Shown here one piece after another: positions 3,442 to 41,338 of a stretch of 42,926 nt of DNA. The stretch's first letter is position 1, and each line of letters opens with the position of its first letter. Both the position numbers and the translations under genes were made by a program. A model generated the notes under the pieces. It worked only from the letters and a program-made list of their open reading frames with translations, was not told the origin of the DNA and did not search any database. The stretch comes from Candidatus Cerribacteria bacterium 'Amazon FNV 2010 28 9' (GTDB lineage: Bacteria; Patescibacteriota; Microgenomatia; UBA1400; UBA12028), in NCBI GenBank assembly GCA_003176165.1, contig PSRQ01000032.1, positions 1 through 42,926 of the forward strand. The letters run 5' to 3'.

Positions 3442-6078
3442 ATGAGCAGGCGCTTTGTCACGGAGCAAATTCGTGAAACTCCTCGAGTGGTAGTGTGTGG
3501 CCCTGTCCGTCCTCTTCAAAAGGCGTTAGTACAGCTGCTGTCTGCTGCTCATTTATATGGAGGTGTTATTCACGTGCAGAACGCTCAACGCTGGGAACCT
3601 CCGTTATTGCGTGAGGGGGAATATCTCTTGATCCTCTGGATAGGTGAGCCTGGCATATGGACGGGGAGAGAAAGGGCCCAGACACAAGTTCTTGCCCAGA
3701 CACTCGCAAAGCATAGTCCACACCTGATATACATATCGTTTGATCCGCTTTCTAGGGTGGAAACGGAAATTGAACGCCAATGGAAACTTGATCAAGAGCA
3801 GGGAAGGCAAGTGCTTATCTCACTTTTTAGCCCAGTACATATGCTTTCCTATACACATGTCTTTGAACCGTCCCTCCCTCCGCTTTCTCTAGTGGACACG
3901 CAGATAAGAACACTGATTTCGCAGAAGAAACGCTTGTGTATGGATTCACAAAGCCAGATCAACCCCATATGGCATGAAGATGTTGCGGCGGATATCGTAT
4001 CCCGCGTGCTTTCTGGAGTGAAAGATGACATGTGTTTGGAAGGGAATACCCCTATTGGCGGCGAAGCGCTGGTACGTTCTCTTGAGCCCACAACATCATC
4101 TAGAATGGACCCAATTCAAGTAATCGTGCCTCATGTATGCACAGGAATATCGATTGTTTCTCGTCCGTTTATTTCATTTGTGGAAGTCATGAGGGGGAGT
4201 TATCAATCTCTTTTGCCAGTCGATCTACAAAAGCCCAAGGTGGTGAAGAAGCGTTCTCTCTCTATTAAAAAAATTGGAATGATGGCAGGAATTGTGTGCA
4301 GTTGTCTAGTGTGCGGGTTAGTTTTGTTATGGGTAAGTAGTGGATTTGCTCTTCGTAGCCTTGCAACACAGATTCAACACATCCATGATAAACAGCTTTC
4401 AGCAGAAGATTTGAATACACTGTCACAAGCTCTTGGTGTGGTGACGTTTCTCAAACGGACTCAAGGAAATATAGAAGACACCATCGGGGAACAATCGGAT
4501 GGGGTGGTGGGTTCTCTCTCTATTCTTTCTTCTCAAGTGCAGGCAGTTCAAGATTTACGCAGTGCCCAAGAAAAGCTCGCTTTGTCGTATGAACAAGTCA
4601 TGGGAAAAGGAAAGGGAAGCTCTCTGCAATCAATAGTGGAGGCAGAGGCTCTTTTAGATCGCTCCTATCAAAGCATGTCCTTGGTTCAAGCCCGATTATC
4701 TCAAGATCCGAATGCGATTTCTGTTGTGTTGGGGGGAAGCGTCCTACAGGATGAATTGACCGAGGAGGTAAGTAGTGAGCGTAAATTGATTACGATGCTG
4801 CGCTCTATTCTTACCGTGCTACCTGACATGCTCGGAAAAAATGATGTGCATACATATGCTTTTGTTCTGCAAGACTCTTCTGTGCTTCGCCCAAGTGGAG
4901 GAAAGATTGTAAGTGTGGCTTTGGTTTCGTTTAATCAAGGAACATTAACGGGAGTACACATATATCCTGTGTCTTCACTTGACACTCTTTTACCCGGAAC
5001 TGTGAAAGCTCCTGCTGAAGCTGCTTCTGCTCTAAAGACGACAAATTGGCAACTTGATGATGCAAACTGGGATCTCCAGTTTAAAAATAATGCAGCACAA
5101 ATTTCTTGGTTTATTGGGAAAGAGTTGAATACGACTGTGAATGGTGTATTTGTGGTGAATAGCAGAGATTTGAACATTCTTCTTTCTTCAGTTGGAGATG
5201 TCCATCTTTCAGATGGGACTGTTGTACAGTCAAGCTCTGTAGACCAACATATCAATGCTCTGATCACAGATCAAACGCAGCATGTGGGACAGCTTCCCAT
5301 TTTCTTGAATCAAGTTTTCTCTGGTTTACTCTCCAGCATGCAGACACTATCAACAGATAAGGTTTCTTCCTTTGCTCAAACGGTTTCAGATCTATTTACG
5401 GCGCGAGATCTTCTCTTTTTTGCAGGCGATCAAGATACACAGCAAGTTTTTGCAGCACTGGATTTTGATGGAAACACATTGACACCCACCTGTCCTTCAC
5501 TTTTTGCCGATTCAACGTGTGCTGTAGGGACGTTTTTCTCTCAAGAGCTTTCTATTGGTGGAAATAACGTGAGTCAATTGATCGCTCGAACGCATGCCCA
5601 CACAATCCACGTGGGAGAAACAGTACTCATTCATGAGTATGTTGAAACGATTAAAAATAACGCACTGACTGTGTCTTGGCCCTTTGGAGATGATCAATCT
5701 CTCATGCGGATGGCATTTGAAAATGGGGCTGCAGTTCAAGAGATTATGGTCAATGGACTGTCACTTGCTCCCAATCAGTTTTCTGTGGCCACCCAAGACG
5801 GGTTAAAAGTAGTTTCCCTTCCTACCGACACTCCAGCAGGAGCGACGACCACCATCAAACTCATTTATACAACTCCAGGTATTCCCTCGAGCAATAGCTC
5901 TATCGCTTTCTTTGAACAAAAGCAACCCGGAACTGGAAGCGATCCTTTTACTCTCACGGTCACGTACCCAGATACTTATACTCCAAAAACTGTGGCACCC
6001 AAAGCAACGTTTGGGCATAATAGCATTATCTTTTCAGGGTCACTTGATCAGGACAGGCTCTATGCCGTGGGTTTTTAA
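3442..6078 (+). CDS. DUF4012-type membrane protein with a degenerate epimerase-like N-terminus
   Basis: Single TM helix near aa 280-300. QDSSVLRPSGG, DANWDLQF and QKQPG motifs resemble CPR DUF4012 proteins. Confidence 0.7.
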   Translation: MSRRFVTEQIRETPRVVVCGPVRPLQKALVQLLSAAHLYGGVIHVQNAQRWEPPLLREGEYLLILWIGEPGIWTGRERAQTQVLAQTLAKHSPHLIYISFDPLSRVETEIERQWKLDQEQGRQVLISLFSPVHMLSYTHVFEPSLPPLSLVDTQIRTLISQKKRLCMDSQSQINPIWHEDVAADIVSRVLSGVKDDMCLEGNTPIGGEALVRSLEPTTSSRMDPIQVIVPHVCTGISIVSRPFISFVEVMRGSYQSLLPVDLQKPKVVKKRSLSIKKIGMMAGIVCSCLVCGLVLLWVSSGFALRSLATQIQHIHDKQLSAEDLNTLSQALGVVTFLKRTQGNIEDTIGEQSDGVVGSLSILSSQVQAVQDLRSAQEKLALSYEQVMGKGKGSSLQSIVEAEALLDRSYQSMSLVQARLSQDPNAISVVLGGSVLQDELTEEVSSERKLITMLRSILTVLPDMLGKNDVHTYAFVLQDSSVLRPSGGKIVSVALVSFNQGTLTGVHIYPVSSLDTLLPGTVKAPAEAASALKTTNWQLDDANWDLQFKNNAAQISWFIGKELNTTVNGVFVVNSRDLNILLSSVGDVHLSDGTVVQSSSVDQHINALITDQTQHVGQLPIFLNQVFSGLLSSMQTLSTDKVSSFAQTVSDLFTARDLLFFAGDQDTQQVFAALDFDGNTLTPTCPSLFADSTCAVGTFFSQELSIGGNNVSQLIARTHAHTIHVGETVLIHEYVETIKNNALTVSWPFGDDQSLMRMAFENGAAVQEIMVNGLSLAPNQFSVATQDGLKVVSLPTDTPAGATTTIKLIYTTPGIPSSNSSIAFFEQKQPGTGSDPFTLTVTYPDTYTPKTVAPKATFGHNSIIFSGSLDQDRLYAVGF

Positions 6079-7821: not shown

Positions 7822-10151
7822 GAAATAGTGATGAGTAATTGCTCTGTTTCTAGAATACCAGCTGCACTCCATTCTTGCCAAATTGCTTCGGTTACAAATG
7901 GCATGACTGGATGGAGAAGTTTCAGACAAGTTGAGAAGACATGGATGAGAACTGCCAACACAACTTCCTTATCTTCCCGCCCCTTTGTTGACTCCAGGTA
8001 GTCACTCGCTACTCGATTCCAAATAAAATCGTAGAGATTCTGCGCATAATCGGAAAAGCGGAAGTGTTCAAGATTGGAGGTGGAGGTTTCGATGAGCGTG
8101 TTGAGTTCGTTCAAGATTTGTTGATCCTCAGGAAGAAGAGGTAAGAGGTAAGAGGTAAGAGGTAAGGAATTTTCCTTCAACTTTTTTCTTAACTCGTAAC
8201 TCTTATCTCTTATCTCTTCGTTTTGTGATAACAAAACGATAAAACGGGCGATATTCCATAGCTTGTTTGCGAAGTTGCGATAGCCTTTTACTTTGTTCTC
8301 AGAAAGTGCGATTGGATTACCGGGTGCACTCCCAGCAATTAACGCTATTCTGAGCGCGTCAGCACCGTATTTTTCGGTGAGATCGATAGGATTGATGACA
8401 TTGCCTTTACTCTTGCTCATTTTGGCACCTTTTTCGTCCGTCACCATGGAGTGCAAGTACACCGTTTCAAACGGTACGGTGTTTGTGCGATACAAACTCA
8501 ACATGATCATGCGTGCGACCCAAAAGAAAAGAATGTCCCACATCGTATCAAGTACTTGTGTGGGGAAGAAGCGTTTGAAATCAGCAGAGTCTGGAAACCC
8601 AAGTGTCGTGAGTGGCCACTGGCCTGATGAAAACCACGTATCGAACGTATCAGTTTCTGGAAGATAGTCATCTCCTGGGCATTCGTTGCTGACGCGATAT
8701 ACAGCATCGACAGGTGCTCGCAGTGTTTGAAGACCCGCTCGGATGGTGTTCAATTCATACTGATCAAGAAGATCGGCAACACGTCCAATCACTCGTTCGT
8801 GATTCTCGTCCAAAAATGTTACTTCCAAATGAGGATTTTCATTGATGCTGTACCACACCGGGATGCGAATACCCCACACAATCTGGCGTGAGATCGGCCA
8901 GTCACGAATATTTTCCAACCACTGATAGTATTGTGTTTCAAATCGAGAAGGAACAAATGTCACGTCTTTATTTTTAGCGGCGGCAATGCCTTTTTGCGCC
9001 AGTGGTTTCATCTTCACAAACCAGTTGGGCATGACCATAGGCTCGATGTCACCACCGGTTTTGTAATCAACAGTCACGTTGTGTGTATATGTTTCATCGA
9101 CTTTCACAATCGTTCCGTCTGCACTCATATCTGCTGCGACAAGTTTGCGCACTTGCGCAACCTTTTTCCCATGATACTTCTGTACTCGCTCTGTTTGTGT
9201 GGGGGAATTTGGTGAAAATGCAGATAGATCAATCTTTCCAAAAAAGTCGATGAGCGGGCGGACGCGCAAGTTATGTTTTCTCCCAAGTGCGAAATCATTG
9301 GCATCGTGGGCGGGTGTGACTTTCATGACACCCGTGCCAAACTCCATGTCGATCGAGTCATCCCAGATGATTCGCATCTGTTGTGATCCAAGGGGACCGT
9401 TGAAGATCACTTCAGTCGTATCTTTCCAATCGTTGTAACGCCCGTCATTGGGGTTGATTGCAATGGCTTCGTCATAGAAAATGGTTTCGGGGCGCACGGT
9501 GGCGACGACCAAGTCGTGTGTATGTGATCCTTTGTCCGCGATATTGATGTAGTAGAGTGGGTCAATGCGTTCGACGTGCATCACTTCGAGCTCGGAAAAT
9601 GTGGTGCCATTTTTGGGTGAGTAGTTGACGATGTAGTTGTCGCGATAAATAAGGCCGTCATCGATCATGTGCTGAAATGTGTCGTACACGACCTTAATCA
9701 CTTTTTCATCGAGCATGAATGTGGCGCGTGACCAATCACATGAGAAGCCGAGCTGCTTCAACTGGTTAAAAATTGTGCCTGAGTTATCTTGCACGAATTG
9801 ATAAATGTCGTTGTACAAGGTTTGTCGGTCAAACTGAAACCGTGATTTACCTGCTTTACTCAAGTGTTTCTCGTACACGTACTGCGTCTCAAAGCCTGCG
9901 TGGTCTGTCCCGGGAATCCAGACTGTCGGATCTCCCATCATGCGATGCCAACGGATGAGAATGTCCTCAATCACAAACATCGCATGCCCGGCGTGTAGGG
10001 AAGCGTTCGCATTGGGCGGAGGAAGCAAAATTGTGAATGGCCTCTTACTCGAGTTAACGTTTTTTTGCGTGTCAGGATTAAACGCTCCGGATTCTTCCCA
10101 GAGTTTATAGATGTTTGCTTCGTGGTTTTTGTGATTGTAGGTCGAGTCCAT
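7791..10151 (-). CDS. valS: Valine--tRNA ligase (786 aa, no C-terminal coiled coil)
   Basis: PPPNANASLHAGH, PGTDHAG, DWPISRQIVWG, DTWFSS, DILFFWVARM and KMSKS motifs. Confidence 0.96.
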   Translation of the reverse strand: MDSTYNHKNHEANIYKLWEESGAFNPDTQKNVNSSKRPFTILLPPPNANASLHAGHAMFVIEDILIRWHRMMGDPTVWIPGTDHAGFETQYVYEKHLSKAGKSRFQFDRQTLYNDIYQFVQDNSGTIFNQLKQLGFSCDWSRATFMLDEKVIKVVYDTFQHMIDDGLIYRDNYIVNYSPKNGTTFSELEVMHVERIDPLYYINIADKGSHTHDLVVATVRPETIFYDEAIAINPNDGRYNDWKDTTEVIFNGPLGSQQMRIIWDDSIDMEFGTGVMKVTPAHDANDFALGRKHNLRVRPLIDFFGKIDLSAFSPNSPTQTERVQKYHGKKVAQVRKLVAADMSADGTIVKVDETYTHNVTVDYKTGGDIEPMVMPNWFVKMKPLAQKGIAAAKNKDVTFVPSRFETQYYQWLENIRDWPISRQIVWGIRIPVWYSINENPHLEVTFLDENHERVIGRVADLLDQYELNTIRAGLQTLRAPVDAVYRVSNECPGDDYLPETDTFDTWFSSGQWPLTTLGFPDSADFKRFFPTQVLDTMWDILFFWVARMIMLSLYRTNTVPFETVYLHSMVTDEKGAKMSKSKGNVINPIDLTEKYGADALRIALIAGSAPGNPIALSENKVKGYRNFANKLWNIARFIVLLSQNEEIRDKSYELRKKLKENSLPLTSYLLPLLPEDQQILNELNTLIETSTSNLEHFRFSDYAQNLYDFIWNRVASDYLESTKGREDKEVVLAVLIHVFSTCLKLLHPVMPFVTEAIWQEWSAAGILETEQLLITISWPNVKLHHQ
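8136..8218. repeat. Inverted heptamer arrays inside valS
   Basis: (AAGAGGT)4 at 8136-8163 and an opposite-orientation TC(T/G)TA(A/T)C x4 at 8187-8214. Confidence 0.85.
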
Positions 10152-23352: not shown

Positions 23353-24102
23353 ATGCATAAGCTTGTTATTTCCAACCTGCACGCCCGCATTGAACAAAAA
23401 GAGATTCTCAAGGGGGTGAATTTAACAATTCAGTCCGGTGAAATTCATGCGATCATGGGGCCCAATGGAAGTGGAAAAAGCACGCTTGCCAATACGCTTG
23501 CCGGACACCCATCGTATGAAGTGACTGAGGGAACAGTTCATCTGGATAGAAAAAATATATTAGAGATGTCTCCGGATGAGCGGGCTCATTCGGGGTTGTT
23601 TTTAGCTTTTCAATATCCGTCGGAAGTGAGTGGTGTACGTGTTCACAATTTCTTGAAAACAGCGTACGAACAGCGTTTTGGCCAACTTGGAAAAGGAAGT
23701 AAGTTTGCCTCAGTGCTCGAATTTCGCAAACACGTGGAAGAGTTGGCCTTGCAGTTGGGAGTGAAAAAAGAGTTGCTCTCGCGTGGATTAAATGAAGGCT
23801 TTTCAGGAGGAGAAAAAAAAAGACTAGAGATTTTGCAAATGGCTCTCCTGGTTCCATCCTACGCCATCCTTGATGAAACGGACTCTGGACTTGATATCGA
23901 TGCAATAAAGACTGTGGCAGAAGGTGTGAAGCAGATCATCACCATGCACAATACTGGTATTATCGTCATCACTCACTATCAACGTATCTTGAAGTACTTG
24001 GAACCAGACGTCGTCCACATCATGCGAGAAGGAAAGATTGTGCAAGATGGTGGTACGGAACTGGTACAAGTATTGGAAGAAAAAGGGTATAGTGGGATGT
24101 AG
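23353..24102 (+). CDS. sufC: Fe-S cluster assembly ATPase SufC
   Basis: GPNGSGKST, FLAFQYP, NEGFSGGEKKR and DETDSGLDIDA motifs. Confidence 0.97.
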   Translation: MHKLVISNLHARIEQKEILKGVNLTIQSGEIHAIMGPNGSGKSTLANTLAGHPSYEVTEGTVHLDRKNILEMSPDERAHSGLFLAFQYPSEVSGVRVHNFLKTAYEQRFGQLGKGSKFASVLEFRKHVEELALQLGVKKELLSRGLNEGFSGGEKKRLEILQMALLVPSYAILDETDSGLDIDAIKTVAEGVKQIITMHNTGIIVITHYQRILKYLEPDVVHIMREGKIVQDGGTELVQVLEEKGYSGM

Positions 24103-35369: not shown

Positions 35370-35444
35370 GCACCCATAGTTTAATGGATAGAATAGCGGT
35401 TTGCGGAACCGTTGATCCAAGTTCGATTCTTGGTGGGTGCACCA
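35370..35444 (+). tRNA. tRNA-Arg(GCG), CCA encoded
   Basis: Acceptor GCACCCA/TGGGTGC, anticodon arm GCGGT-TTGCGGA-ACCGT, T arm CCAAG-TTCGATT-CTTGG. TGaTATAAT lies upstream. Confidence 0.93.
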
Positions 35445-35513: not shown

Positions 35514-35602
35514 GGAGGGGTGCCTCGAGTGGTTTATGGGCCAGGTCTCGAAAACCTCGGGGAGGCTTCGCTTCCACATGGGTTCGAATCCCATCCCCTC
35601 CG
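35514..35602 (+). tRNA. tRNA-Ser(CGA)
   Basis: Acceptor GGAGGGG/CCCCTCC, loop CTCGAAA, long variable arm, ATGGG-TTCGAAT-CCCAT, G discriminator. Confidence 0.9.
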
Positions 35603-35806
35603 CTCTGGTACAGGACGAGTCTTCCGGCAAGTCACCGATGAGTTGACCTGCCCCATCCCGCCAAGCGGGACTGTACCCTTCGCTCGCTTGAGAAACGAGA
35701 AGGTTATTCTAGAGCTTTCTATCCATTCTCCCATGTAATCATTACTTTTTCTTGATACTTCTTACGTTCTTTTCTTTCATACTTTCTTTTCAGGAAAGGA
35801 AATTGT

Positions 35807-36780: not shown

Positions 36781-36852
36781 GCTCCCGTAGTCTAATGGAT
36801 AGAACATTGGCCTCCGAAGCTGAAAATGTGCGTTCGATTCGCACCGGGAGCA
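36781..36852 (+). tRNA. tRNA-Arg(CCG)
   Basis: Acceptor GCTCCCG/CGGGAGC, loop CTCCGAA, GTGCG-TTCGATT-CGCAC. Confidence 0.92.
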
Positions 36853-36864
36853 CTGTTCGACTTG

Positions 36865-37794: not shown

Positions 37795-37971
37795 ATGTCA
37801 CTCAAAACATTTATTTATGGTGGGGTATTTGTAGGGTCGATCATTGGAGGATATATTCCTGTCCTCTGGGGAACAGGTCTCCTTTCGTTTAGCAGTGTGT
37901 TGTGGAGTGCTATCGGAGGATTCGTCGGTCTCGTTATCGCATACAAGATTGGAAAGAACTTATTTTTGTAA
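37795..37971 (+). CDS. Small Gly-rich membrane protein (58 aa)
   Basis: MSLKTFIYGGVFVGSIIGGYIPVLWGTGLLSFSSVLWSAIGGFVGLVIAYKIGKNLFL with TGcTACACT upstream; below the ORF-track cutoff. Confidence 0.7.
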   Translation: MSLKTFIYGGVFVGSIIGGYIPVLWGTGLLSFSSVLWSAIGGFVGLVIAYKIGKNLFL

Positions 37972-38023
37972 ATTTGTGGATTTATCTTGCCCGCCTTCGC
38001 TCTATGAGCTTTGGCGAGGTGAA

Positions 38024-38187
38024 AGCGGAGAGGGTGGGTATCCCAGGTTGCTATCGCACCTGGGTCCATTTCTCATGTCGCCTCATTGGTGACTTGATGT
38101 GCAGATTCGTAAAGCGACATCGCGCTCTACTCCCTTGTCTTTGAAAACTCAGAAATTGAGTTTTCAAAAGTCAGCGGAGAGGGTGGG
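38024..38187. repeat. 15-bp direct repeat of the tRNA-Ser 3' end (att-like)
   Basis: AGCGGAGAGGGTGGG at 38024-38038 and 38173-38187. Confidence 0.7.
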
Positions 38188-38259
38188 ATTCGAACCCACG
38201 GTGACTTGCGCCACAATCGCTTAGTAGGCGATCGCACTAGACCACTATGCGACCTCTCC
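38175..38259 (-). tRNA. tRNA-Ser with ACT anticodon
   Basis: GGAGAGG TC GCA-TAGTGGTCTAG-TGC G ATCGC-CTACTAA-GCGAT T GTGGC-GCAA-GTCAC C GTGGG-TTCGAAT-CCCAC CCTCTCC G. Confidence 0.9.
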
Positions 38260-38299
38260 AGAGGAAACTCATCGTTTTCTGACGGTTCCTTGTTAGTAT

Positions 38300-38321
38300 A
38301 GTATACCAGATCTGGTATACT
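38300..38321. promoter_or_regulatory. Perfect 22-bp palindrome made of back-to-back extended -10 boxes
   Basis: AGTATACCAGATCTGGTATACT, giving TGgTATACT on each strand, between divergent genes. Confidence 0.65.
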
Positions 38322-38332
38322 TTCTCCTATAT

Positions 38333-38557
38333 ATGACAGAGCAGGATAACCCATATCGCCAATTGCAGGAGCGACTGACAGTACTAACCAGGGAAATGCC
38401 TTGTCCGGCTTGTGGCGAACGGAAGCTGCAATTGCGAGGTAACAGTCAGCTTGTGTGTTCCAATAGAGATGGACATCAAAATCACGAGCCGCGAACAGTT
38501 ACGGCGGGGGAAATCGCACAGTTTTTGCGCATTCATCAAATTTCAGCGTCACGATAA
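38333..38557 (+). CDS. Small zinc-ribbon-like protein
   Basis: CPACG...CSNRDGH. Confidence 0.55.
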   Translation: MTEQDNPYRQLQERLTVLTREMPCPACGERKLQLRGNSQLVCSNRDGHQNHEPRTVTAGEIAQFLRIHQISASR

Positions 38558-41338
38558 GACATCTTCCTGAGGTTTTTCCTTGATAAATTCTGCAAGTTCT
38601 GCAATCACGGCAGTGGTGCCATGTTGAACATATCCATCTTGTTGCAATGCCGTGATGCGATCCTGTACATTGAGAGAATCAGGATGAACAAGAATACTCA
38701 AAAATGCTCCATTTACTTCTTTTTCAAACACCAACAGGGTTTGGAAGTATGTAGGATCCCCTGGTTTTTGATATTCTTGCAATATGTGTTGAGCGAGAGG
38801 GTTGCCGCGAAGATCTGAGACAACCCATGACTCTCGCAGCGCATCTTCAGGGAAAAGAAGCGATGTTCGTCGGATGATCGCAGCGATGGCCTGTTCCATT
38901 CGGGTGTATTGATCTCGTTGCTGAGTATCAGATTGTATGTCAGTGTTTGAAGGAAAACGGATAGCCACACACACTTCTCGAGTTCCGCTAATAGTCATTT
39001 GTTCGTGCGTATTGAAGTTCTCAACAGGGAGATCTTCTTCATACTGTGGGTTTAGGTCCCATTGTCCCTTACGATCGACCATTGATTTTTTTGAGTAAAA
39101 AGAAATGTCATCAGGGTGAAAAAGCGAGTCCCCATTCCCATCCTTGAGTGCAAAAAGATCTTGGAGAAGTGCTCCAATATGCTCTTCATTTTGGACGTAC
39201 ATGTTGTAGGTAAGGGTGGGGATATGGCTGTTTACAATCTCTTCAACCTTTGCATGGCTTGCTGCCTCAAAAATGTTGACTCCAGAGGTATACTCGCGGC
39301 GTATGATCTCGAGACCTTCTTGAGCAGCCTGTAGATTTTTACTAATCCTTTCTGAAAATGTGCCACTATTTTTGATCTCATTTGCCAATTCCATACGTTT
39401 AGCATGTCCTTCTTGTCGAGTTAAAAAGGGAAGAGCAGAGAGCTCATACATATTCCCATTTTTGACTAATTCGAGTACTTGAGCACCTCGTTCTCCTAGA
39501 TGTTGTTCAACAAATCGATCGGCGTTTTGTGGAATTTCAGCGACAAAATAGAGCGTTTCTTGCTCTGTTGGGTAGCGAATGATGCGAATTGCTCGAAAAA
39601 TAGCCCCATACGGTATGGTATCTGAAGGGTGTATGAAAGAAATTTCTTGCTGGAGGCGATTGATAAACTCTTCATTTACCCCACCCATGATTCGAATATT
39701 ATTTTTGAGGAAGAACTCATCAATTGATTCTCCACTGCGTTCATCACGTTTTTCAACTTTGGGAAGAAGATTTTTTGTTTCTTTGTGCACCGATTCTGAA
39801 AATACATCAGCATCGGATTCCATAAACACTGTTCGTGCATGTGTCCCTGCAGGGATAAGGCTCATTTTTGCTTGAGCTCGTGCCATGGCGATTTTTAAAA
39901 ACACACGATTTCCAAAGTTCTCTTTGATCCACTGCGCAGCTTCTTTTTCAACTTCTGTTCCGGATGTCATTTTGTCATCCACGAGTTGATTCCATGAGGC
40001 GGACAACGTTTTGATGTAGTCAAGGAATTCAAGTGATGGTGGCAAGATAGAATCAGGAGCCGTGTTAGCAAGTGCAACGAACCCATCGCCTGCAAGTTCT
40101 GAAGGATGCATGTGACGCAGATGTGCACTCGTAACTGCATCCAGGAGCCACTCTCGAAAAAGTGAGGTAATACCTGTCTGCTGTTTGCGGCGCTCGATTA
40201 CTTTTTGTTGTCGTTTCAGTTGATCTTGGGGGCTAAGATGGTGTTGCTCTGTGGAAAATAGTTCATTGAACTCTTTTTCAAATGCGCTTGTGATGGCTGT
40301 CATGCCAGAAATGTCAACATTAACAATTGTTTCTCTCTGGTCTATTGAGATTTCTTGTGTTGCGCGTTTTCCCTCCCGATGTCGGCGAATAGACTGGATA
40401 ATCAGCGATCGTACATCCGTGGGACTTTCATGTGCCTCCTCTGCAATTTCTTCTAGCGTGTACGGAGATTGTCCGATCGTCATCTCTTTGAAGACATCCC
40501 AATGGCTTGTGCAGGTGCGTTCCCATTGATCCCAAGAATCAGGATTAACTCTGGGGTTATTGGTTGCAGATTGTGTCGCTATGATCCCAATGTTGTCAAA
40601 CGTGGCGTTCTTTTTTGTATTTTTGTAACTCTTTTTTTCTAAGAGTGTGGGATCGTCTTCGTCTTGAGTAAGGATAGGAAGAGCCTTCCCGAGTTGGACT
40701 TGTTGTTCAAACGAGGAAAATTCGTTTCCATGTAAAGCAGCCGTTGCCGTAGCTGCAGGGAAGAGAACTCCTTGCGGTGTAACAGAAAGTGCTTGATACA
40801 CAAAAAGCTTTGGCCGTTCATTTCCCTCTGAGGGGATAGCAGCAATGCGTATGGTTGCTGTCTCCTGCGGTTTTCCAATGCTGATCCAGAAGGGAAGGGA
40901 ATTTCCCTTAAGGTTATTTTCTTCCAGTATACGGTTTGCTTGTGCAATGAAACGATCCAATGCTGAGATGGTGTTTGGTGAATCTTTCGTCAATGTGGTA
41001 AATTTGTCACCTTGTTGGAGTGTCCATCCTTGGAGTTGACTAGTCATCAAGCCTGTCAGTTCTCGCTGAAGATGCGGAGGAATATCGTCTCGGAAGGCGA
41101 TGGCAATATATCGATACGGAAGTGTATGGAGATCCACCACAACACGTTTTTTCTCTTGTCGTGCTTTTTCATATGCTCGTGTAATTTGTGCTGCATGCTC
41201 GATAAGTAAGGGACGAATAAATTCCGGTACCGACTCTATAGCCACGGTTCGACCCTGATGTTCACGATCACTCTCGCTCTCTATGAGAGTTTGATTTCTT
41301 TCGTTTATCTGAGGGGAGGGAAAAGAAATGCTGTCCAT
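38549..41338 (-). CDS. Large protein with a divergent class III nucleotidyl cyclase domain
   Basis: IVNVDISGMTAIT and ELAGDGFVAL supply the two metal-binding Asp motifs, followed by FLKIAMA. Confidence 0.6.
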   Translation of the reverse strand: MDSISFPSPQINERNQTLIESESDREHQGRTVAIESVPEFIRPLLIEHAAQITRAYEKARQEKKRVVVDLHTLPYRYIAIAFRDDIPPHLQRELTGLMTSQLQGWTLQQGDKFTTLTKDSPNTISALDRFIAQANRILEENNLKGNSLPFWISIGKPQETATIRIAAIPSEGNERPKLFVYQALSVTPQGVLFPAATATAALHGNEFSSFEQQVQLGKALPILTQDEDDPTLLEKKSYKNTKKNATFDNIGIIATQSATNNPRVNPDSWDQWERTCTSHWDVFKEMTIGQSPYTLEEIAEEAHESPTDVRSLIIQSIRRHREGKRATQEISIDQRETIVNVDISGMTAITSAFEKEFNELFSTEQHHLSPQDQLKRQQKVIERRKQQTGITSLFREWLLDAVTSAHLRHMHPSELAGDGFVALANTAPDSILPPSLEFLDYIKTLSASWNQLVDDKMTSGTEVEKEAAQWIKENFGNRVFLKIAMARAQAKMSLIPAGTHARTVFMESDADVFSESVHKETKNLLPKVEKRDERSGESIDEFFLKNNIRIMGGVNEEFINRLQQEISFIHPSDTIPYGAIFRAIRIIRYPTEQETLYFVAEIPQNADRFVEQHLGERGAQVLELVKNGNMYELSALPFLTRQEGHAKRMELANEIKNSGTFSERISKNLQAAQEGLEIIRREYTSGVNIFEAASHAKVEEIVNSHIPTLTYNMYVQNEEHIGALLQDLFALKDGNGDSLFHPDDISFYSKKSMVDRKGQWDLNPQYEEDLPVENFNTHEQMTISGTREVCVAIRFPSNTDIQSDTQQRDQYTRMEQAIAAIIRRTSLLFPEDALRESWVVSDLRGNPLAQHILQEYQKPGDPTYFQTLLVFEKEVNGAFLSILVHPDSLNVQDRITALQQDGYVQHGTTAVIAELAEFIKEKPQEDVLS

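Follow-up and report, generated by a model that had tools for sequence, protein, structure and literature searches.

In Mollicutes that lack the deaminase TadA, tRNAs with adenosine at the wobble position (A34) keep this base unmodified, among them tRNA-Thr(AGU) of Mycoplasma capricolum. TadA itself recognises the loop U33-A34-C35-G36, and the seryl-tRNA synthetase, SerRS, does not read the anticodon of its tRNA. In the split box shared by serine and arginine, A34 is described as "universally missing" in the available text of a review (PMC8007984), whose bacterial sample contained no CPR phylum. An ACU anticodon has also been engineered in E. coli, where reading of AGU reached 9.4% and that of AGG 0.36%, while none could be detected for AGC and AGA (Table 1 in the accessible part of PMC11066159). 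The locus described here carries the same anticodon in a natural tRNA. It lies in the window, a term that denotes the whole analysed stretch of 42,926 nucleotides, which is contig C19 of its genome.

The tRNA-Ser(ACU) gene occupies positions 38174..38259 on the minus strand according to ARAGORN, which finds four tRNAs in the window, this one (Ser(ACT) in DNA letters) included. It is a type II tRNA with G73 and without an encoded CCA. Over 38175-38259, the Rfam tRNA model RF00005 scores 58.3 bits (E 3.4e-10; gathering score 29), and no non-standard pair is flagged in the alignment; ARAGORN and Rfam together bear out the claim of an earlier note that an intact type II serine tRNA with an ACU anticodon is present. 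The anticodon, A34 (38225)-C35-U36, lies at 38223..38225 on the minus strand, as read from the sequence and from ARAGORN, which puts it at gene position 35. Its loop is C32-U33-A-C-U-A37-A38, within the arm AUCGC-CUACUAA-GCGAU of the minus strand. The D and T loops of the cloverleaf are canonical, with GG in the former and GGTTCGAATCC in the latter, and the long variable arm is a helix of 5 bp in which all five pairs show compensatory changes among 23 homologues. Pairs 1-3 are GC, GC and AU in 23/23 aligned homologues and pair 11-24 is CG in 22/23, with G73 following the acceptor stem. Ser(ACU) carries all of G73, G1-C72, G2-C71, A3-U70 and C11-G24, which we take to be the identity elements of tRNA-Ser.

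The earlier note had also credited the gene with its own promoter, a point not upheld by a sigma-70 scan of 37950-38450, which returned neither promoter-like nor terminator-like sites. By eye, an extended -10-like TGgTATACT, not called by the scan, is visible 41 nt upstream of the tRNA, at 38300..38308 on the minus strand. This motif falls within a perfect 20-nt palindrome, GTATACCAGATCTGGTATAC, at 38301-38320 in the spacer that separates the tRNA from a divergent 74 aa ORF (38333-38557), and the palindrome could be an operator or a promoter element. Starting 5 nt past the 3' end of the tRNA, an A+T-rich hairpin with a 12-bp stem and a 5-nt loop (38140..38168), likewise seen by eye and not called by the scan, is possibly a two-way terminator.

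The three other tRNAs of the window, all on the plus strand and found by ARAGORN and Rfam, are Arg(GCG) at 35370..35444, in place of the usual Arg(ACG), Ser(CGA) at 35514..35603 and Arg(CCG) at 36781..36853. These are cluster members: in two single-contig relatives (L005 and L017), Arg(CCG), Ser(CGA), Arg(GCG), Ser(ACT), Ser(TGA) and Ser(GCT) stand in one cluster, part of which is present in the window. Two large proteins of the window lack a clear family assignment: one of 929 aa, upstream of the tRNA (38549-41338, minus strand), is without a Pfam or PADLOC match, and one of 878 aa (3442-6078, plus strand) has DUF4012 as its sole match. A tblastn search with the 481 aa SufB (L053-L116) gave matches of about 1900-2050 nt in many relatives, as against about 1430, which suggests an insertion, possibly an intein, in many relatives and a copy without it in the window.

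The own genome comprises 1,055,589 bases in 65 contigs (95.3% complete, 0.7% contaminated), and whole-genome ARAGORN finds 43 tRNAs in it, among which Ser(ACT) is the only one with A34. The separate Ser(GCT) for which the earlier note had suggested a search does exist: a canonical tRNA-Ser(GCT) lies at C24:17849-17935. Further serine tRNAs have the anticodons TGA, CGA and GGA. The arginine set consists of GCG, CCG, TCG, TCT and CCT, with ACG absent, in agreement with the statement that arginine is served by GCG. Since the genome has a canonical Ser(GCU), Ser(ACU) is an extra AGY isoacceptor and not the sole decoder, and the proposal that AGY is decoded through A34 alone has to be given up. The acceptor stem, the anticodon stem and the variable arm all differ between the two tRNAs, and Ser(ACU) is not a recent copy of Ser(GCU). 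Both genes also occur together in relatives, with a Ser(GCU)-like gene no more than a few kb from Ser(ACU) in 5/5 near-complete carriers tested and Ser(GCT) present in 12/29 loci of about 3 kb around Ser(ACT).

In the own genome, the profiles PF00383 and PF14437 gave 0 matches at E 0.01, with 12/14 control genomes positive. This sustains the view that TadA is probably absent from this genome, which is 95% complete and in 65 contigs. A search with the ADAR-type deaminase profile PF02137 was silent, and so was its control. The TilS-type domain PF01171 had 0 matches in the own genome as well, with 14/14 controls positive, and a tRNA-Ile(UAU) is located at C23:1816-1891. Two near-universal wobble-base enzymes, TadA and TilS, thus appear to be replaced by direct anticodons in the lineage, a seeming habit into which Ser(ACU) fits. 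A side observation on the RNA genes of this genome is a tmRNA at C5:12566-12963 with an unusually long tag, AKTIRSTVAYVKSLFDFSPVASYAPLVA; a similar one is seen in relative L018.

A BLAST search with the tRNA against 60 relatives yielded 29 loci, and ARAGORN identified Ser(ACT) in 13/29, often beside Ser(GCT). Larger sets of genomes were scanned with a strict pattern, TACTAAN{21,34}GGTTCRARTCC, and with the reversed pattern as control. In the own order, the strict pattern matched 120/286 genomes and the reversed control gave 2 matches, so that the survey of related genomes proposed by the earlier note turns out positive; one of the 120 (G088) looks false, and without a genome flagged as unpublished (G179) the count is 119/285. 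Matches are distributed unevenly over the families of the order (denoted f1 to f19 here): 11/13 genomes in f1, 22/24 in f9, 30/44 in f15 and 50/140 in f13, then 3/8 in f14, 2/9 in f18 and 1/4 in f19, and none in twelve other families, for example 0/14 in f3. The strict pattern undercounts, as a looser pattern combined with ARAGORN found Ser(ACT) in 4/20 pattern-negative genomes.

Beyond the order, the strict pattern matched 41/401 genomes in a sample of the class (control, 3), and 23 of the 41 belong to other orders. Of twelve class loci fetched from outside the own order, ARAGORN confirmed 10 as Ser(ACT), and the other 2 proved not to be tRNAs. A sample of the phylum was noisy, since the looser pattern gave 36 matches in 401 genomes versus about two dozen for the control; ARAGORN confirmed Ser(ACT) outside the class in 10 genomes of 7 families of this sample, 11 random-looking loci that were fetched contained none, and 6 more random-looking ones were left out. 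In an outgroup, the phylum of a Chloroflexia genome, the strict pattern matched 0/251 genomes and the control gave 4 matches. Judged from gene sequences, Ser(ACU) is patchily distributed in the class and phylum of this Microgenomates-type lineage of Patescibacteria/CPR. The earlier note had regarded a canonical Ser(GCT) accompanied by a strain-private ACU copy as damaging to its reading; the canonical gene exists, and the ACU copy is not strain-private, being conserved across families, classes and phages.

The codons concerned keep their usual meaning. In the window, KMSKS of ValS is encoded at 8409-8423 (minus strand) as AAA ATG AGC AAG AGT, the R of GGEKKR in SufC (23806-23823) is AGA, and so is one R of KRNRLKR in RnpA (1062-1079), all three as originally claimed. 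Codon frequencies in 647 long ORFs of the own genome are, per 1000, 15.6 for AGT (the top serine codon), 8.2 for AGC, 5.5 for AGA and 2.8 for AGG. When the own proteins were compared with 800 kb of relatives' DNA (426 HSPs), own AGT aligned to serine in 41% of cases in carriers of Ser(ACU) and 38% in non-carriers, own AGC in 35% and 32%, and own TCN in 46-52% and 39-49%. In both groups, own AGA and AGG aligned to arginine in 33-45%, to lysine in about 20% and to serine in 5-8% of cases. The claim that AGA still encodes arginine holds, and for AGG too, as both align to R or K in relatives. Such alignments indicate that the genetic code is standard, with AGU as serine and AGR as arginine.

On balance, Ser(ACU) is probably a working and selectively maintained fifth serine tRNA, an extra AGY isoacceptor beside Ser(GCU) that has an unmodified A34 and reads AGU. 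With no detectable TadA, A34 most likely stays adenosine in this lineage. It would pair with the U of AGU in Watson-Crick geometry and read AGU selectively, and Ser(GCU) would cover AGC, plus AGU by wobble. Ser(ACU) would be expressed and charged by SerRS; for charging with serine, the alignment of AGT codons to serine in relatives is indirect support. Its A37 is probably t6A, a modification made plausible by TsaD, which is found in the own genome with 257.9 bits. Because SerRS ignores the anticodon, AGY would be the only two-codon NNY box in which a change from G34 to A34 keeps charging intact, and the loss of TadA would mean that there is no danger of I34 also reading AGA, an arginine codon. 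By analogy, a natural Ser(ACU) acting as a selective AGU reader fits the data on the engineered anticodon in the accessible part of PMC11066159.

An imprint of the tRNA on codon usage was also considered. In a comparison of carriers and non-carriers based on 40 genomes with 20 kb each (L133-L172), which are not independent of one another, AGU over AGC relative to the other NNY boxes is higher in carriers, with p 0.0066 in the first grouping and p 0.0019 after four genomes shown to be Ser(ACT) carriers were moved. The shift, however, concerns all NGY boxes (TGY, CGY, AGY and GGY), where U over C is higher in carriers with a delta of 0.23-0.43 (p 0.007-0.04), whereas in the other NNY boxes of these 40 regions of 20 kb the two groups are alike. 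As TGY, CGY and GGY shift in the same way, the change in AGU is not evidence for the action of the tRNA, and codon usage in these genomes carries no signal specific to Ser(ACU); the NGY shift is a clade or dinucleotide effect. In the own genome, the preference for AGU (0.66) does not exceed that of the other NNY boxes.

Ser(ACU) is encountered in viral sequences, too. The strict pattern, applied to IMG/VR, gave at least 119 loci (L212-L330), and ARAGORN identified Ser(ACT) in 73/119 of the matches listed, for example at L223:345-432 and L239:280-370. Among the listed viral Ser(ACT), 67/73 sequences are distinct, contigs reach 391 kb, and the genes lie mostly inside tRNA arrays (median, 5 tRNAs in each locus). 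The listed loci are A+T-rich (median GC 0.37), and in 2/73 of them Ser(GCT) occurs in the same locus. Compared with CPR tRNAs, the listed viral genes reach best identities of 73% in the median and 88% at most. Other A34 tRNAs are seen in the listed loci as well, namely Arg-ACG (6), Leu-AAG (3), Tyr-ATA (1), Gly-ACC (1) and Thr-AGT (1). In cultured phages, a BLAST search with four viral Ser(ACU) sequences found no Ser(ACU) and gave Ser(UGA) homologues only (phages 121Q and RN05-S), one unannotated contig, or nothing.

The viral copies raise the question of why phages carry such a tRNA. One answer is that Ser(ACU) is kept as it escapes anticodon nucleases, whether from defence systems, from toxin-antitoxin pairs or from competitors' toxins, that recognise tRNA-Ser(GCU), which would allow AGY decoding to survive an attack. 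The frequency of Ser(ACU) in contigs of uncultured large phages (73/119 among the matches listed), with Ser(GCT) beside it in 2/73, speaks for this role. So does the anticodon nuclease HepS, which cuts tRNA-Ser(GCT) among its secondary targets, according to the available part of PMC13043305; ACU is without the G, and it is this activity that makes the escape role of interest. Against it, no defence or toxin gene stands beside the tRNA of the window, where PADLOC and PHROGs returned only NUDIX and MazG matches among 9 neighbours, and an A+T-rich phage (median GC 0.37 in the listed loci) may want an AGU reader for its codon usage alone. Moreover, to our knowledge no nuclease targeting Ser(GCU) has been described in these bacteria. 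Escape from nucleases is an unlikely explanation overall; it would supply a selective reason only, and is compatible with the preferred account, as Ser(ACU) would still be an AGU reader.

A different explanation holds that a divergent deaminase, or else some unknown enzyme, turns A34 into inosine or a further kind of modified base, in which case Ser(ACU) would read AGU and AGC, and also AGA if the base is I34. Deaminase matches are common in the order, as PF14437 finds one in 163/286 genomes, and the proteins are of two kinds. The common kind, present in 129/140 genomes of f13, is a protein of about 285-306 aa; in two examples the best NCBIfam matches were ComEB and dCTP deaminase, with no TadA match, and these proteins look like dCMP/dCTP deaminases. 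The rarer kind, with 144-181 aa, is TadA/guanine-deaminase-like. With the TadA equivalog model, whose cut-off is 150 bits, the eight examples scored gave 60-96 bits, all under the cut-off. The search of relatives for tadA that the earlier note had recommended therefore leaves matches that are either under the TadA cut-off or similar to dCMP deaminase.

Several observations argue for the inosine explanation. Short TadA/guanine-deaminase-like proteins do occur in a minority of the order's genomes. In one relative, G126 (L044, contig C21), the tRNA at 1396-1481 is followed 8 nt later by an ORF (1489-1947) for a 152 aa protein of this type; the same genome has three Ser(ACU) copies on three contigs. 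Four carriers in f9 have a TadA-like deaminase (82-96 bits with PF14437 or the TadA model) and no Arg(ACG) match, their arginine tRNAs of this group being of the GCG type only, by pattern, and Ser(ACU) would be the only A34 tRNA found in them. The anticodon loop differs from that of the TadA substrate at position 36 only.

The evidence on the other side is broader. The own genome has 0 matches to the CDA fold, and families rich in Ser(ACU) are poor in PF14437 matches (4/13 in f1, 6/24 in f9 and 6/44 in f15). In the relatives' loci that were read, arginine tRNAs have GCG or CCG, and ACG appears in none. Ser(ACU) is matched in 16/35 genomes with a short, high-scoring deaminase (46%), versus 42% of the order, which is no enrichment, and the two genes adjoin in only 1 (G126) of those 16; a comparison of tRNA and deaminase coordinates revealed no second case in the order. 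None of the eight short deaminases scored reaches the TadA cut-off, and with U at position 36 the loop of Ser(ACU) departs from the U33-A34-C35-G36 that TadA recognises. Furthermore, I34-C35-U36 would put serine at AGA, a codon in normal use as arginine, and AGA use is not clearly different between carriers and non-carriers (p 0.04 after regrouping). Going by this gene distribution, a deaminase may possibly act on Ser(ACU) in a few lineages and cannot be the general rule, and modification of A34 as the explanation of the tRNA is given about one chance in ten.

Conservation of the gene bears on whether the tRNA serves the ribosome at all. Among 23 aligned homologues, 19/28 predicted stem pairs have undergone a double compensatory change at least once, with the reservation that 2 of the 28 fall within the anticodon loop and are probably over-predicted. 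All 23 homologues have U-ACU-AA in the anticodon loop, with U or C at position 32. The combination of an invariant U-ACU-AA with co-varying stems points to selection on the anticodon itself. The nearest neighbour of every Ser(ACT) is another Ser(ACT), at 75-98% identity, as compared with 68-81% for the best non-ACT tRNA and 52-74% for Ser(GCT) of the same locus. In an anticodon-masked ML tree, from which two GCU rows were left out as their anticodon was not located automatically, 39 ACU and 15 other sequences fall on one side and 4 ACU sequences outside, with a support of 0.65. No isoacceptor, ACU included, forms a clean clade in this tree, and Ser(ACU) may have arisen once or several times.

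A role outside ribosomal decoding, such as supplying serine to transferases of the cell wall or of other kinds, or acting as a regulatory RNA, is highly improbable in the light of these data, and so is a decaying duplicate. The anticodon and the rest of its loop are invariant while the stems co-vary, the anticodon is not needed by SerRS, and the D loop (GG) and the T loop (GGTTCGAATCC) have their canonical sequences. In addition, a decaying copy would not persist over orders and classes. In favour of such a role, non-canonical functions have been proposed for 'missing' tRNAs generally in the available text of PMC8007984.

The identity of the base at 38225, which the earlier note had marked for checking, is settled as A by two assembled contigs and by dozens of related genomes. 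Over 38200-38415, the contig of run X3 shows 0 differences from the window, and is weak as independent support since X3 may be the source sample; that of run X6, which belongs to another study, extends over the entire tRNA (38175-38259), again with 0 differences, and has different flanks. An assembly or binning artefact, with a true base G or a contig from another organism or phage, might be suspected because the genome is a metagenome bin in 65 contigs with Ser(GCU) on a different contig, but it is refuted for practical purposes by the agreement of independent contigs with the window, by a Ser(ACU) body unlike Ser(GCU) throughout, by single-contig relatives (L005, which is G044, and L017, which is G027) with ACU and GCU in one Arg/Ser cluster, and by a PHROGs scan of the neighbours in which no phage context was seen around the tRNA.

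Taken further, the findings could be drawn into a wider picture that is itself rather unlikely to be right as a whole. In it, Ser(ACU) would be a real and overlooked natural anticodon, common in CPR and large phages, that breaks the rule of no A34 in a split box and becomes possible once TadA is lost or irrelevant. It would perhaps be kept both as an AGU reader and as an AGY decoder unseen by nucleases directed at Ser(GCU), and passed between phages and small-genome hosts. The literature searched, subscription journals and supplementary tables being outside its scope, yielded no account of Ser(ACU) in bacteria or phages, and an earlier mention in a tRNA survey may exist. Genes of this type may be marked as odd or taken for pseudogenes by annotation pipelines. 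A natural Ser(ACU) offers a system for asking how a wobble adenosine behaves where misreading changes the amino acid, and its lineage one for asking how decoding is rewired without TadA and TilS.

Compared with known systems, Ser(ACU) resembles Thr(AGU) of Mollicutes in having a genomically encoded A34 in a reduced genome without detectable TadA, its unmodified state being the probable one here. Unlike it, Ser(ACU) has its A34 in a split box shared with arginine and in a genome that retains the G34 tRNA, whereas the A34 tRNAs of Mollicutes belong to four-codon boxes, in which it does no harm to read whatever third base, and frequently take the place of the G34 tRNA. With the tRNA-Arg(ACG)/TadA pair of most bacteria, it shares A34 followed by C35 and a loop that is the same except for position 36. 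The differences are that TadA is not detectable, that arginine is read through GCG, UCG and CCG, that position 36 is U, and that inosine would misread AGA. The tRNA-Ile(UAU) of bacteria without TilS is similar in using a direct Watson-Crick anticodon instead of a wobble-base modification enzyme; it concerns another box and another base, and it takes the place of a modified tRNA, whereas Ser(ACU) comes in addition to Ser(GCU).

Leu(AAG) and Thr(AGU) of Leuconostoc and Oenococcus are likewise extra bacterial A34 tRNAs, of which only some are deaminated as far as the available text of PMC8007984 and PMC11066159 goes; unlike Ser(ACU), they belong to four-codon boxes and to hosts with TadA. The orthogonal M. 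jannaschii tRNA of Schmitt, Tittle and Fisk (2024, PMC11066159, accessible part) has the same ACU anticodon, placed artificially in a tyrosine tRNA body in E. coli, whereas Ser(ACU) is a natural type II tRNA in another ribosomal background. As its sequences indicate, a conserved natural Ser(ACU) contradicts the "universally missing" A34 in the available text of PMC8007984. Set against all of these systems, Ser(ACU) adds one isoacceptor to the set, and does not amount to a new way to read the whole AGY box.
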